DNA from: Candidatus Aenigmatarchaeota archaeon
GTDB taxonomy: Archaea; Aenigmatarchaeota; Aenigmatarchaeia; QMZP01; QMZT01
Reading direction: 5' to 3'
Length of the DNA stretch: 64,000 bases
NCBI GenBank assembly: GCA_041489155.1
Contig: JBGPQP010000005.1
Coordinates: 2,509-66,508 of the forward strand
Made by a program: the position numbers and the translations under genes. A model generated the notes under the pieces. The model had not been told where the DNA came from. It worked only from the letters and a program-made list of their open reading frames with translations, and did not search any database. Below are positions 46,780 to 49,701 of this stretch, one piece after another. The number at the start of each line of letters is the position of its first letter. Position 1 is the stretch's first letter.

Positions 46780-48678
46780 CTATCCTATAAATATGGGCCT
46801 CTTGGTAAGAAGCCTGGGAAGCGGCAGCGCCTTGAAGGGCTTGCCTTCCGTCTGCTTCTTTATCATGTCTACAAACGCTTTCTGCGTATGTTTCTCGACC
46901 TTCCCTGTTTCCCTTAGTCTCACAGCAAGTTTGTTTTCAGTCAGTTCCCTTTCCCCGATAACGACGGCGAAGGGTACCCATTCAATCTCCGAGTCGCGTA
47001 TTTTCTTCTGGACGCTTTCTTTTCTGTCGTCAACGTCGACCCGTATCCCTTCCTTCGCGATTTCCTCGGCTATTGCTTCCGTCTGCTTCAGGAACTTGTC
47101 TGACACGGGGATGAACCTCGCCTGCGTTGGGCAGAGCCACAAAGGAAGGATTGGGTTCTTGCCTTTGGCCGATTCCATGTGGGCCTTTTCAAGCAAAGCA
47201 TACATCACCCTTTCTATCGCGCCTGAAGGTGAGAGGTGAAGGATGATCGGATATTTCTTCGTGTTGTCGCTGTCCATGTACATTATGCCGTAGCGTTTAG
47301 CGTTCTCGACGTCTATCTGGTCCGTCGTCAGCGCTGCTGCTTTGTCAAGCGCATCGACGAAGTTCAGGTCGTACTTGAAAATGAAGTAGAAGAACTGCTT
47401 GCTCCACATTTCGAGCAGGACCGGCTTGCCTATTTTCTTGACAACAGTCTTCAGGAAATCTCTGTTATCATCGTAGAAATCTTTCACCACCCTGAGCGCG
47501 CCTTCCAAGTTTTCGTTCAGCGGCACGCCGACGCCATTCAGGATGTCCTTCGCCAGGTCCAGGCGCGTCAGCATCTCCCCCTTCGCCTGCTCAATATCCC
47601 TGCACATCGCATGGCAATCAGGCATGGTGAACGCGCGAAGCCTGCGAAGTCCAGCGAGCTCGCCTCGCTGCTCCACGCGGAAAGAATAGCGCGTAAGCTC
47701 GTACATTCTCATCGGAAGATTGCGGTAGGAAATATTCGCGTCCTTCGCCATCAGGAATTGTCCGAAACACGCTGAAAAGCGCAGGAATACGCGCTTGTTG
47801 GGCGTCTCGATTGTATACTGCCTCGCAGGGAAGCGGTTCAGATAATCCTTGAGCGCAGGATGCTCGTAATCATACATTATCGGTGTCTCGACTTCCATCC
47901 CGCCGTAACCGATTACCTTCCCGGTGACATATTCTTCCAGAAGCGATTTTATCAGCCTTCCCTTGGGAAGGAAGCGCAGGTTGCCCGGGTCGCTGCCGCT
48001 TTCGTAATCCACCAGTTCGAGCTTCCTCATCAAGCGCACGTGCGGAGGCTCTTTGTCAGCGACTCTCGATTTCGCCATCTCGTAACGGGCGAATTTCTCC
48101 AAGTTATTGTGTTTCGAAAAATCGAAGCCTTTCACATTCCCTTCTTCTATGCTGAGCTTGTGCAGCTTCCCTTCTATGTCAAGCACATACCAATCCGAAG
48201 CGAGCGTCTTCTCCTTCTCGAGCGCCTTTGAAACCTCGGCCTTCGCTTCCACCACGTCGTCTGCGACTATCTCCCTTGAAAGCTCGGAAAGCGGGTGGCC
48301 CTTTACGGCGATGGTGAATCTTTTGTAATAGCCGAAAGGCGCGCGGTGAACGCTGTACTTCATTCCCTTGAGCTGGGTTTCAACTCCTTTCAGAACAGTC
48401 AGGGCGGCGGACGGCGATGAAGGCGTTTTGCTCAGATGAACATAAGGGTAAACGACGATGTTATTTGCTTTCACTTCTTTCGCTACTTTGTCTATCTCCT
48501 CCGAAGTCTTGTCTATTATGGTCTTTTCCTTGCCTTCGTCATTTTTCTCCACCGCGGAAAAAACCACCAGCACGTCCTTTACGCTGCTTACTTTCTTTTC
48601 GATTTCCTCCGCGTTTTTAATCGCTTTTTCTTTCGGTTCCCATTCTATGAAATCCGAATGCAACAACAGGATTTTCAT
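46780..48678 (-). CDS. thrS: Threonine--tRNA ligase, archaeal type with N-terminal editing domain
   Basis: 'YPYVHLS', 'APFGYYK', 'KGHPLSELSR', 'LRFSACFG', 'RLRAFTMPDCH', 'HLSPSGAIER'. Confidence 0.96.
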   Translation of the reverse strand: MKILLLHSDFIEWEPKEKAIKNAEEIEKKVSSVKDVLVVFSAVEKNDEGKEKTIIDKTSEEIDKVAKEVKANNIVVYPYVHLSKTPSSPSAALTVLKGVETQLKGMKYSVHRAPFGYYKRFTIAVKGHPLSELSREIVADDVVEAKAEVSKALEKEKTLASDWYVLDIEGKLHKLSIEEGNVKGFDFSKHNNLEKFARYEMAKSRVADKEPPHVRLMRKLELVDYESGSDPGNLRFLPKGRLIKSLLEEYVTGKVIGYGGMEVETPIMYDYEHPALKDYLNRFPARQYTIETPNKRVFLRFSACFGQFLMAKDANISYRNLPMRMYELTRYSFRVEQRGELAGLRRLRAFTMPDCHAMCRDIEQAKGEMLTRLDLAKDILNGVGVPLNENLEGALRVVKDFYDDNRDFLKTVVKKIGKPVLLEMWSKQFFYFIFKYDLNFVDALDKAAALTTDQIDVENAKRYGIMYMDSDNTKKYPIILHLSPSGAIERVMYALLEKAHMESAKGKNPILPLWLCPTQARFIPVSDKFLKQTEAIAEEIAKEGIRVDVDDRKESVQKKIRDSEIEWVPFAVVIGERELTENKLAVRLRETGKVEKHTQKAFVDMIKKQTEGKPFKALPLPRLLTKRPIFIG

Positions 48679-48725
48679 CCGCCACCACCTTTACCTTTAT
48701 TTTTTTGTTTTAGCCGTTAATTAAA

Positions 48726-48770
48726 CTCCCGGCTGGCCGAGAACCGAAAGAATCAGTCCGGCCGCAGACC
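48726..48770 (-). promoter_or_regulatory. GC-rich stem-loop region in the thrS leader
   Basis: Minus strand GGCCG-GACUGA-UUCUU-UCGGUU-CU-CGGCC hairpin between the leader ORF and thrS (paired by eye). Confidence 0.6.
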
Positions 48771-48775
48771 AAGAA

Positions 48776-48832
48776 CTAACACGTCGTAGTGGTTGTCGTA
48801 GTTGTTTTAGTCGTGGTCTTGCCGGAGTTCAT
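48776..48832 (-). CDS. Putative thrS leader peptide MNSGKTTTKTTTTTTTTC
   Basis: ATG AAC TCC GGC AAG ACC ACG ACT AAA ACA ACT ACG ACA ACC ACT ACG ACG TGT TAG; 11 of 18 codons are Thr; ends 97 nt upstream of thrS on the same strand. Confidence 0.85.
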   Translation of the reverse strand: MNSGKTTTKTTTTTTTTC

Positions 48833-48853
48833 GAAAATAATTTGGTCGTCAGA

Positions 48854-48868
48854 TTTTAAAAACCTTTC
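48854..48868 (-). promoter_or_regulatory. BRE-TATA promoter for leader-thrS
   Basis: Minus strand GAAAGG-TTTTTAAAA ending 21 nt before the leader ATG. Confidence 0.6.
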
Positions 48869-49701
48869 AGAAACGAGTAAACACATTCCGGCAGTCTTTC
48901 GCTGTAGCCGCCCTCGAGAATCGCGAAGCGTGGCTTGTTGAGATCGGCTATCATCTTTGAGATTTTCGAATACGTGTCGACCTCGAGCTTCAGCCCCGCC
49001 AGCGGATCGCCTTCGAATGTGTCGAAACCTGCTGACACCGCTATCATATCCGGCTTGAACTTTTTTATTATCTCGAGCGCGACCTCGAGCTTCTGGAGGT
49101 ACAGCCTTTCGTCCGTTCCGCTGTCGAGCGGGAAGTTGTGGCAGTTCGCTTCAGAATGCTTGCCCGTTCCGGGGTAGAAATTGCCGTACTGATGCAGGGA
49201 AACGTAAATCACGTTTTTCCTGCCAAGGAAAATGTCCTGCGTGCCGTTGCCGTGATGCACGTCGATGTCGAGGATTGCAACCTTTGCTTCCCTTCGCAGC
49301 GCCTTCACAACAGCGATGGCGATGTTGTTGAAATAGCAGAAGCCTTCGAACTTCGCTCTGCCTGCATGATGGCCGGGTGGCCGCATTAGAGAGAAGGCTT
49401 TGTCTTCCTCGAGGGCGATGAACATCGCCCTTACCGCCGCGCCCGCGGATAGCCTTGCATGGTTGTATATGCTTGGCAGCGCAGGCGTTTCGGGGTTAAC
49501 GAAATTCCCCCGTTTTATGGTGTCTATCAGTTTTGGTGTATGGACGAGGAGCAGATCCTGTCTCGTGCAGGGTTCTGGCTTTACGAATTCGAAGTTCCCG
49601 GTTTTTCCCAGAAGCTCGTACGTCCTTCGTACCCGTTCGCTCGATTCGGGATGGCCTTGCATGTCGTAATTCAGGCATTCAGGCGAAAAAACAACCTTCA
49701 T
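48856..49701 (-). CDS. Histone deacetylase family protein
   Basis: 'HPES', 'RPPGHHA', 'GFCYFNN', 'DIDVHHGNGTQ', 'SAGFD', 'LEGGY'. Confidence 0.93.
   Translation of the reverse strand: MKVVFSPECLNYDMQGHPESSERVRRTYELLGKTGNFEFVKPEPCTRQDLLLVHTPKLIDTIKRGNFVNPETPALPSIYNHARLSAGAAVRAMFIALEEDKAFSLMRPPGHHAGRAKFEGFCYFNNIAIAVVKALRREAKVAILDIDVHHGNGTQDIFLGRKNVIYVSLHQYGNFYPGTGKHSEANCHNFPLDSGTDERLYLQKLEVALEIIKKFKPDMIAVSAGFDTFEGDPLAGLKLEVDTYSKISKMIADLNKPRFAILEGGYSERLPECVYSFLKGF

Follow-up and report, generated by a model that had tools for sequence, protein, structure and literature searches.

The region upstream of thrS, the gene for threonine-tRNA ligase, in a 64,000-nucleotide stretch of a Candidatus Aenigmatarchaeota archaeon (contig JBGPQP010000005.1, positions 2,509 to 66,508; referred to here as the window) bears on the way in which an essential synthetase is adjusted in a streamlined DPANN genome. 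On the minus strand of the window the start of thrS at 48678 is preceded by a deacetylase-like gene, whose end is at 48856, and a short open reading frame (ORF), MNSGKTTTKTTTTTTTTC, in which 11 of the 18 codons encode threonine, is located between them. A previous reading of the sequence alone (the sequence-only reading) had drawn four pairings in the RNA that extends from the ATG of this leader ORF to the last base before the thrS ATG (48832..48679), and had proposed a translational switch in which a ribosome stalled on the Thr codons would free the Shine-Dalgarno (SD) sequence of thrS. The competing helices found around the leader ORF point, on sequence grounds, to sensing by a stalling ribosome. 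The best explanation that we can offer is a leader-peptide sensor of charged tRNA-Thr in front of thrS, to which we attach an even chance of being right, and its output would be transcript read-through and not masking of the SD sequence.

Attenuation mediated by ribosomes belongs to the textbook mechanisms of bacteria and relies on the coupling of transcription with translation. No report of such attenuation in archaea was found in the open-access (CC-licensed) PMC papers and bioRxiv preprints that were searched, subscription-only literature being outside that search. The compact and conserved element described here, of about 150 nt and with clear compensatory changes, makes it testable whether an archaeal transcript is controlled by its own ribosome, and by which route of termination.

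Conservation of the threonine-rich leader ORF

Regions upstream of thrS were collected from 41 related genomes, from a species-genome collection (28 loci) and from metagenomes (43 loci). A Thr-rich mini-ORF was present in 9 of 28 such regions in the related-genome set, where one additional region carried a decayed version, and in 31 of 69 regions in the species-genome and metagenome sets. Once 13 identical copies had been dropped, 25 distinct leaders of 12 to 22 codons remained, with threonine at 194 of 400 residues (48%). The enrichment of a short ORF before thrS in the codons cognate to the synthetase is accordingly found both in the window and across its relatives. All four Thr codons were used (ACG 72, ACA 46, ACC 44, and ACT 32), and the final Thr was located one to three codons ahead of the stop. 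This stop codon was TAG in every one of the 25 leaders, and by eye in five additional ones, although TAG ends only 21.6% of 951 crude ORFs genome-wide. Six additional, more divergent leaders were recognized, namely those of G011 (MFTSTTTTGTTGSC), G035, G060, G054, and G010, and the doubtful L052 (MNYPITTTR). All leaders found precede thrS in Aenigmatarchaeota.

A covariance model built from 24 of the 25 leaders matched 15 of the 23 genomes of the family, with one copy in each except for G018, which has two leader copies on two contigs and also two thrS matches. In the whole order 18 of 91 genomes were matched, including three of 47 from a second family and none of the 21 from the other four families. 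The matches that could be placed were all upstream of thrS, either directly or with one intervening ORF (G010, G035, and G054). Within the genome of the window, the leader was the sole leaderless mini-ORF with an extreme bias for a single residue, the runner-up having 5 Leu in 11 residues, and no leaders for other amino acids were found in this genome.

The leader has been lost or is decaying in part of one genus. One genome (G017; L010, L037, L071) keeps all the helices described below and has lost four of six Thr codons through second-position changes (MNSGFMIKTTMSR as compared with MNSGFTTTTTTSR); the leader is deleted in two other genomes of the genus, and an unrelated upstream region is present in one. 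This decay supports the leader as a dispensable regulator. The same dispensability in several relatives is what could be expected of a small poly-Thr protein gene, or of a chance ORF beside the thrS promoter, with no regulatory function. We consider this possibility extremely unlikely in view of the retention of the leader in two families with unchanged position and orientation, its covarying helices, its invariant TAG stop, and its exact promoter spacing.

A predicted leaderless transcript starting at the leader ORF

In the host genome, TATA-like hexamers were concentrated at positions −30 to −27 before the ATG of 594 ORFs lacking an SD sequence, with frequencies of 0.26–0.29 per 2-nt bin versus about 0.03 elsewhere. 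The consensus of 226 leaderless promoters consisted of an A-rich segment (−34 to −32), TTTTWAAAA (−30 to −22), AA (−11/−10), an A/T-rich segment (−9 to −2), and a pyrimidine at −1. Every one of these elements is fitted by the sequence upstream of the leader, GAAAGG-TTTTTAAAA-N11-AAATTATTTTC-ATG, which overlaps the stop codon of the deacetylase-like gene. A position weight matrix (PWM) covering positions −36 to −1 was derived from the 226 promoters of SD-less ORFs, with 12.5 and 6.0 bits as the 99.9th and 99th percentiles of a random genome, respectively. The leader promoter of the window scored 20.0 bits, and the predicted start fell on the A of the leader ATG. The same position was predicted in 24 of the 25 leaders, and position −1 in the remaining one, and a TATA hexamer was found at −30 to −27 in all 25. 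Since transcription is predicted to start at or next to the leader ATG, the ORF would head a leaderless RNA, a location at the 5′ end of the transcript on which the PWM start and the genome-wide TATA spacing agree. The leader ORF is probably translated from such a leaderless mRNA.

As a general trait of the host genome, most genes look leaderless and share a tight promoter grammar, and those led by an SD sequence are a minority (283 vs 594 crude ORFs).

Two mutually exclusive folds of the leader RNA

The strings of the four pairings drawn in the sequence-only reading were all located in their places on the minus strand. For the description of the helices, the RNA was divided into regions 0 to 5 (Table 1). 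Region 0 comprises codons 2 to 4 of the leader ORF and can pair either with region 5, forming helix P1, or with region 3 (0:3 pairing). Region 3, in turn, pairs either with region 0 or with region 4, the latter pairing being the P3 hairpin. Helix P2 links region 1, with the run of Thr codons, to region 2, with the stop codon. Because regions 0 and 3 have two partners each, along the path of the ribosome, two exclusive folds result: an enclosing hairpin that can form first (fold A: 0:3 plus P2), and a three-way junction that would be the end state (fold B: P1 plus P3).

Two of the pairings previously drawn, P1 (9 bp with one bulged G) and the GGCCG...CGGCC hairpin P3 (48763–48735), were borne out by the comparison of homologous leaders, where both are conserved and show compensatory changes. 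The 166-nt stretch had a minimum free energy (MFE) of −46.2 kcal/mol (z = −2.2), and RNAalifold recovered P1 and P3 from nine sequences. In an alignment of 24 sequences, 90.8% of the cells in the outer part of P1 and in P3 were paired and 12 cells were changed on both sides; neither value was reached by any of 500 shuffles, and sliding the partner left at most 56.5% of the cells paired. The duplex of the P1 strands AACUCCGGC and GCCG(G)GAGUU had an RNAduplex energy of −16.4 kcal/mol, versus −6.4 ± 2.2 kcal/mol for shuffles of the 5′ strand, none of which was as good (0/1000). The main group shares this form of P1 (AACUCCGGC with GCCG(N)GAGUU). The helix is built from other sequences in L003 (CUCCGUCUU with AAGAC(A)GGAG), L058 (GAACCCU with AGGGUUC), L085 (CACUUUGG with CCAAAGUG), G054 (GCAUCCC with GGGAUGC), G010 (UCCGCC with GGCGGG), and G035 (AUGUACCCC with GGGGUAUAU), and it is weak or absent in L084, G011, and L052.

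The competing 0:3 pairing emerged from folding of growing prefixes of the RNA, in which the start of the ORF paired with the 5′ arm of P3, enclosing P2, in 25 of 25 leaders. The main group forms it with UCCGGC/GCCGGA, and other lineages with AUGAACUCC/GGGGUUCAU (L003), GAACUCCG/UGGGGUUC (L048), AUGAACCC/GGGUUCGU (L058), GCAUCCCAC/GUGGGGUGC (G054), and ACCCCGGCACG/UGUGCUGGGGU (G060). In the corresponding columns 88.2% of the cells were paired, versus at most 57.5% when the partner was slid. Column-wise covariation was modest, with 34 to 86 of 500 shuffles equally high, as the direction in which the helix is extended differs among lineages, and for this reason shuffle tests were carried out by lineage. 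Combining the shuffle p values of nine lineage representatives by Fisher's method gave 2.8e-8 for the 0:3 and 1.9e-8 for the 0:5 pairing, each with six of the nine at p ≤ 0.05, for representatives that were hand-picked and with relatedness within the order removed only in part. Each of the two pairings recurs, in differing sequence, in about nine lineages. Of 24 full-length leader RNAs, 20 were more stable as the three-way junction than as fold A, the mean difference being −5.7 kcal/mol.

Regarding P2, the six base pairs between AGACCA (48819–48814) and TGGTCT (48771–48766) that had been proposed do exist and are conserved, and they extend inward as GACTAA/TTAGTT, which includes the TAG stop; composition-matched shuffles, on the other hand, often paired equally well (p = 0.33 in the window). 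The lack of significance in this test is due to the G/U-rich composition of the post-stop segment, so P2 was judged from the folds and from the constancy of the TAG stop. In both MFE and prefix folds P2 always linked the Thr codons with the stop or post-stop segment. Among the stop codons only TAG can pair with an ACN-ACN repeat, through the CUA created at the junction of two Thr codons. Of the 25 prefix folds, 17 joined the TAG stop to a CUA within the ORF, and 21 had at least two bases of the stop paired.

Two further pairings were considered and dropped. A pairing of region 2 with region 3 (TGGTCTG with CGGACTGA), suggested by a terminator scan, was absent by eye in L004, L072, L012, and L013, and a hairpin joining the loop of P3 to region 5 (CTTTCGGTT/AGCCGGGAG) was not conserved by eye in L002 and L004.

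Accessibility of the thrS ribosome binding site

The fourth pairing of the sequence-only reading was the basis of its translational switch, according to which the leader ORF region would pair with the SD sequence or the AUG of thrS on read-through transcripts and a stall at the Thr codons would free the SD sequence. Such a mechanism exists in bacteria: in the leaderless poly-Cys ORFs of mycobacteria a stalled ribosome opens a sequestered downstream ribosome binding site (RBS), according to the accessible text of bioRxiv 10.1101/834739. In the window, seven base pairs with one G-U can indeed be drawn between CCACTAC (48792–48786) and GTGGTGG (48688–48682); this pairing was at chance level, unconserved, and uncompetitive. 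The best duplex between the Thr-codon part and the thrS RBS had −11.8 kcal/mol (p = 0.077 vs shuffles), and 8.8% of 283 other SD regions of the host paired with the Thr run equally well or better. The pairing was at chance in 21 of 24 leaders (p > 0.05), and the SD sequences themselves vary among relatives (GGTGGT, GGTGAT, GGGGAT, GGAGGG). The probability of pairing between the RBS and the leader ORF was 0.01 in the window and 0.05 as the mean of 24 leaders, and no duplex of the mycobacterial type, sequestering the downstream RBS until opened by a stalled ribosome, was found.

The accessibility of the SD sequence was also calculated with ribosome masks placed on the leader ORF. Over 24 leaders the mean unpaired fraction from the SD sequence to the AUG was 0.45 in the free RNA; 0.42, 0.45, and 0.46 with the ribosome on early, middle, and late Thr codons, respectively; and 0.42 with the ribosome on the stop codon. 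The corresponding values in the window were 0.43 (free), 0.39, 0.44, and 0.43 (early, middle, and late Thr), and 0.37 (stop). The prediction that masking the Thr codons would free thrS initiation thus failed. When the RNA was cut at the thrS AUG, the MFE structure paired UCCG...ACCAC with GGUGGUGGCGGA in the window and in three close relatives (L059, L060, and L054), which favours a translational output; this pairing is limited to that subgroup and was gone once 30 nt of coding sequence were added. Furthermore, the promoter proximal to thrS described below would give mRNAs without the leader. Pairing (iv) being at chance, unconserved, and uncompetitive, the translational switch is not supported, and we regard it as very unlikely. 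What stands of the former interpretation is a leader ORF of Thr codons located in competing helices before thrS; the role of those codons as an anti-SD sequence masked by stalling does not.

The main pairing partner of the thrS RBS is the first few codons of the gene itself, in the window at 48660–48690 (GGAU...AUCC around the AUG) and with a mean probability of 0.38 over 24 relatives.

A second promoter-like element and candidate termination sites

An AT box, TTTAATTAA, is located 47 nt before the thrS ATG in the window, and an AT box was found at −48 to −39 in 23 of the 25 leaders. The PWM predicted a second start 9 to 17 nt before thrS, at a score of 11.9 bits in the window; 24 of the 25 leaders reached 6.0 bits or more, and 13 of the 25 reached 12.5 bits or more. 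Three independent and differently bounded leader deletions (L007/L008, L009, and L101) keep the GTGAG-TTTAATTAATA box and everything downstream, and distant relatives in which the leader is missing (L038, L040, and L074) likewise show a TATA-like box some 45 nt ahead of thrS. In the main group, region 5 is located on the 5′ side of the AT box, and in L003, L048, L051, L058, L084, and G010 on its 3′ side; this difference in order indicates that the helix strand and the box are separate elements. Transcripts starting at this thrS-proximal, promoter-like element would carry no leader and no Thr codons. That strand and box can be pulled apart is shown by L011, L060, L062, and L063, where an insertion of about 20 nt, which resembles a partial duplication of the box, is located between the AT box and region 5, the latter being followed by TTTAG.

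The absence of a long U tract after the P3 hairpin, pointed out in the sequence-only reading, holds for the stretch that follows the junction; the loop of the hairpin itself is U-rich (TGATTCTTTCGGTTCT, 48755–48740). A U-rich tract after region 3 is a feature of the main clade, and a run of four to six T was found 22–30 nt past the stop in 11 of 25 leaders; strong U tracts were also present in G011 and L052, and the other divergent lineages were without them. A consensus scan gave four terminator-like sites, versus 1.0 expected, of which three were in the leader, and the pairings involved were not conserved. A terminator formed by P1 and TTTAATTAA was discarded as a general model: past region 5, L060 and the divergent lineages lack a U-rich stretch, and the divergent lineages have their AT box on the 5′ side of region 5.

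The termination factor aCPSF1 (FttA), through which the switch might act according to the alternative named in the sequence-only reading, is encoded in the host genome (TIGR03675, 883 bits). This factor acts with U tracts in Methanococcus, as described in the accessible text of PMC8716108, and the steric exclusion of FttA by a coupled ribosome has been put forward, as a hypothesis only, in the accessible text of PMC11616081. An alternative with the opposite logic can be built on these elements, combining polarity and promoter interference: a stalled ribosome would uncouple from the polymerase, aCPSF1/FttA would end the leader RNA at the U/C-rich tract, and occlusion of the proximal promoter would be relieved, so that stalling would raise thrS expression through termination. 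The tandem promoters about 150 nt apart, the overlap of region 5 with the core of the second one, the presence of aCPSF1, and the steric-exclusion hypothesis just cited are all in line with it. The conserved 0:3 and 0:5 helices, in contrast, are given no role, and the benefit of relieving occlusion is doubtful given that read-through transcripts keep an accessible thrS RBS. We assign this alternative a small chance.

A model for the sensing of charged tRNA-Thr

In the model that we favour, ribosome sensing of charged tRNA-Thr with transcript read-through as the output, RNA synthesis would start from the high-scoring leader promoter, on the A of the leader ATG or at a neighbouring position, and the 18-codon ORF would be translated as a leaderless message. 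As region 3 is transcribed before regions 4 and 5, fold A could form first: region 0 would pair with region 3 and the Thr codons with the stop and post-stop segment, the whole ORF becoming one long hairpin followed, in the clade of the window, by the U-rich tract. A ribosome on the ORF would occupy the strands of fold A, or sit between them, and would exclude this fold. With plentiful Thr-tRNA the ribosome would finish and leave, fold A would close behind a polymerase still on the U-rich tract, and the leader transcript would end there, either intrinsically or with aCPSF1/FttA. With scarce Thr-tRNA the ribosome would stay on the Thr codons and block fold A, the polymerase would run on, the RNA would settle into fold B, the junction of P3 (3:4) and P1 (0:5) that is more stable in the full RNA, and the transcript would reach thrS. 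Read-through would add to a basal supply of thrS mRNA from the proximal promoter. With respect to the output step, we infer that the fold sets the share of leader transcripts that extend into thrS.

Several observations weigh against this model. The U-rich tract is not universal, runs of at least four T being limited to the 11 leaders mentioned above, and it is weak in divergent lineages; in the window it amounts to TTCTTTCGGTTCT, with no run above three U. To our knowledge, archaeal intrinsic termination needs no hairpin, which makes hairpin-assisted termination at this site an assumption. Termination of uncoupled polymerases by a factor of the FttA type could even reverse the sign of the response, with stalling leading to termination. 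In most leaders (22 of 24, p > 0.04) shuffles matched for composition did as well as helix P2, and equilibrium folding of a long RNA is noisy, with a probability of only 0.22 for pairing of region 0 with the region-5 zone in the window. The MFE pairing obtained with the RNA cut at the thrS AUG, as indicated above, speaks for a translational output. Finally, thrS has its own promoter-like element and the leader is therefore not needed for expression, and there are relatives that live without it.

Comparison with known regulatory systems

In Escherichia coli, leader-peptide attenuators control pheST, through pheM, and the thr operon, through thrL. The thrS leader resembles such bacterial systems in having a short ORF of cognate codons directly upstream of the gene, in the exclusive helices that overlap this ORF, and in the sensing of charged tRNA through ribosome position that is proposed for it. 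It differs from them in its archaeal host (DPANN, Aenigmatarchaeota) and its leaderless ORF; in that codons 2–4 are a strand of both alternative helices and the whole ORF is enclosed; in that the stable fold is a three-way junction; in the apparent absence of a bacterial-type GC hairpin followed by a U run; and in the second promoter between the switch and the gene. Attenuators on bacterial synthetase genes include those of pheST and, in Streptomyces, of trpS and leuS (PMC1262725, accessible text). The Rfam model of the Thr leader (Thr_leader, RF00506) scored 14.5 bits on our sequence, versus a gathering score of 55 (E = 8.8), and the remaining Rfam matches were likewise below threshold, with no family at its gathering score.

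The mycobacterial poly-Cys ORFs, as presented in the accessible text cited above, share with the thrS leader a leaderless sensory mini-ORF, a run of a single codon type, and a readout based on ribosome stalling. The difference is in the target: in that account the stalled ribosome blocks an RBS-sequestering duplex, and RBS sequestration was tested here and not found. Termination by aCPSF1 (FttA) at archaeal U tracts is similar in that a U-rich tract follows an early hairpin and the gene for the factor is present; the accessible text of the literature cited places it at gene ends and inside operons and does not describe gating by a leader ORF. A possibility that we hold tentatively, at a little less than an even chance, is that the locus represents the first archaeal ribosome-sensed attenuator, in which the first codons of a leaderless ORF are shared by two competing helices, a stalled ribosome vetoes the enclosing hairpin, read-through proceeds from the sensor promoter across a basal promoter into thrS, and termination is of the U-tract/aCPSF1 type. 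If this is true, the archaeal build would differ from that of bacterial attenuators, with termination by U tract and aCPSF1 in place of a bacterial-type terminator.

Feedback on the same gene through a cis-acting RNA is known from bacteria. In the operator of E. coli thrS, part of the mRNA mimics an anticodon arm and is bound by the encoded threonyl-tRNA synthetase (ThrRS); thrS of Bacillus subtilis is controlled by a T-box. The archaeal leader shares with both the gene and the cis-acting RNA; it differs in that no Rfam family reached its gathering score and no anticodon-like loop was seen on inspection. With regard to a T-box or ThrRS operator, there was no Rfam match at E ≤ 10 in 48300–49200, and the predicted hairpins of the window contained no NGUAA loop.

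The folds could also serve the RNA itself, by hiding the 5′-terminal AUG after one round of translation, by shielding the 5′ end from exonucleases, or by binding ThrRS. The first codons are sequestered in both folds, and in some lineages the AUG is as well; an anticodon-arm-like hairpin before thrS in a sister family suggests that autoregulation of thrS by protein-RNA contact occurs in the order. A role of this kind leaves unexplained the 48% of Thr residues, the synonymous variation of their codons, and the placement before thrS only, and a ThrRS binding site is disfavoured by the lack of an anticodon-like loop, as judged by inspection only. We consider it quite unlikely.

Features of the locus and its relatives

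The positions of the elements discussed are compiled in Table 1.

Table 1. Elements of the thrS leader region, in window positions, and the thrS-proximal hairpin of a sister family, in locus positions.
Feature	Position	Strand	Basis
Leader promoter: purine-rich GAAAGG, then TATA box TTTTTAAAA at −30 to −22 from the leader ATG	48854..48868	−	TATA spacing and PWM
A/T-rich proximal promoter element AAATTATTTT, then C at −1	48834..48843	−	Genome-wide consensus; kept as CAATTAA in relatives
Leader ORF MNSGKTTTKTTTTTTTTC with TAG stop, 18 codons, 11/18 Thr	48776..48832	−	ORF listing and 25 homologous ORFs
Region 0 (AACTCCGGC, codons 2–4), partner of region 5 (P1) or region 3 (0:3)	48821..48829	−	Folds, shuffles, covariation
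Region 1: AGACCA and Thr-codon run, 5′ strand of P2, presumed ribosome stall zone	48782..48819	−	MFE and prefix folds
Region 2: TTAGTT (with the TAG stop) and TGGTCT, 3′ strand of P2	48766..48779	−	MFE and prefix folds
Region 3 (GGCCGGA): 5′ strand of P3, or partner of region 0 (TCCGGC/GCCGGA)	48757..48763	−	Prefix folds, shuffles
U-rich tract TGATTCTTTCGGTTCT in the P3 loop, right after region 3; candidate pause or termination site	48740..48755	−	T-run survey; not universal
Region 4 (CGGCC): 3′ strand of P3	48735..48739	−	P3 with 92.4% of cells paired; C-G/U-A and G-C/U-G exchanges
Region 5 (GCCGGGAGTT): 3′ strand of P1, closes the three-way junction	48724..48733	−	Covariation, shuffles
AT box TTTAATTAA, probably the TATA element of a thrS promoter distinct from that of the leader	48717..48725	−	Position, PWM, retention in leader deletions
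SD-like sequence AGGTGGTGG of thrS	48682..48690	−	String located; accessibility flat under ribosome masks
thrS, archaeal threonine-tRNA ligase with N-terminal editing domain	46780..48678	−	NCBIfam NF003068, 816.9 bits vs cut-off 484
Sister-family thrS hairpin	L017, L018, L021, L022: 1431-1503; L020: 3391-3463 (minus)		

In one genus of the sister family, thrS has no leader ORF, and a conserved hairpin of 6 bp with a 7-nt loop ending in UGUAA (GCAGCC-GUUGUAA-GGCUGC) is located just before the SD sequence. Its stem has one pair with both bases changed and another with a change in a single base, and there is a further (U/G)GUAA motif ahead of the hairpin. This hairpin looks like a mimic of the anticodon arm of tRNA-Thr(UGU), as in the E. 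coli thrS operator.

Two kinds of ORF intervene between leader and thrS. One of them, some 390 aa long (L128:320-1495 minus; L133:299-1459), occurs in G010 and G054, two genomes of different families; it has an N-terminus similar to a helix-turn-helix and LAGLIDADG-type motifs, and matches the intein or homing-endonuclease parts of intein-containing proteins. The thrS alleles of both genomes are also alike, and the ORF looks like a mobile insertion or a transferred cassette. In G035 the leader structure and thrS are separated by a Cys/His-rich ORF of 62–68 aa (L130, reverse complement 235-442).

The genome that harbours the window comprises 39 contigs with a total of 1.13 Mb. Two thrS architectures are preceded by this type of leader (G002:C8, G003:C7, G015:C16, and G019:C29; L102–L106). 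In several genomes, including two of the genus of the window, the N-terminal editing domain of ThrRS is 59–66% identical to that encoded in the window, and the catalytic part of the same proteins is just 27–28% identical.

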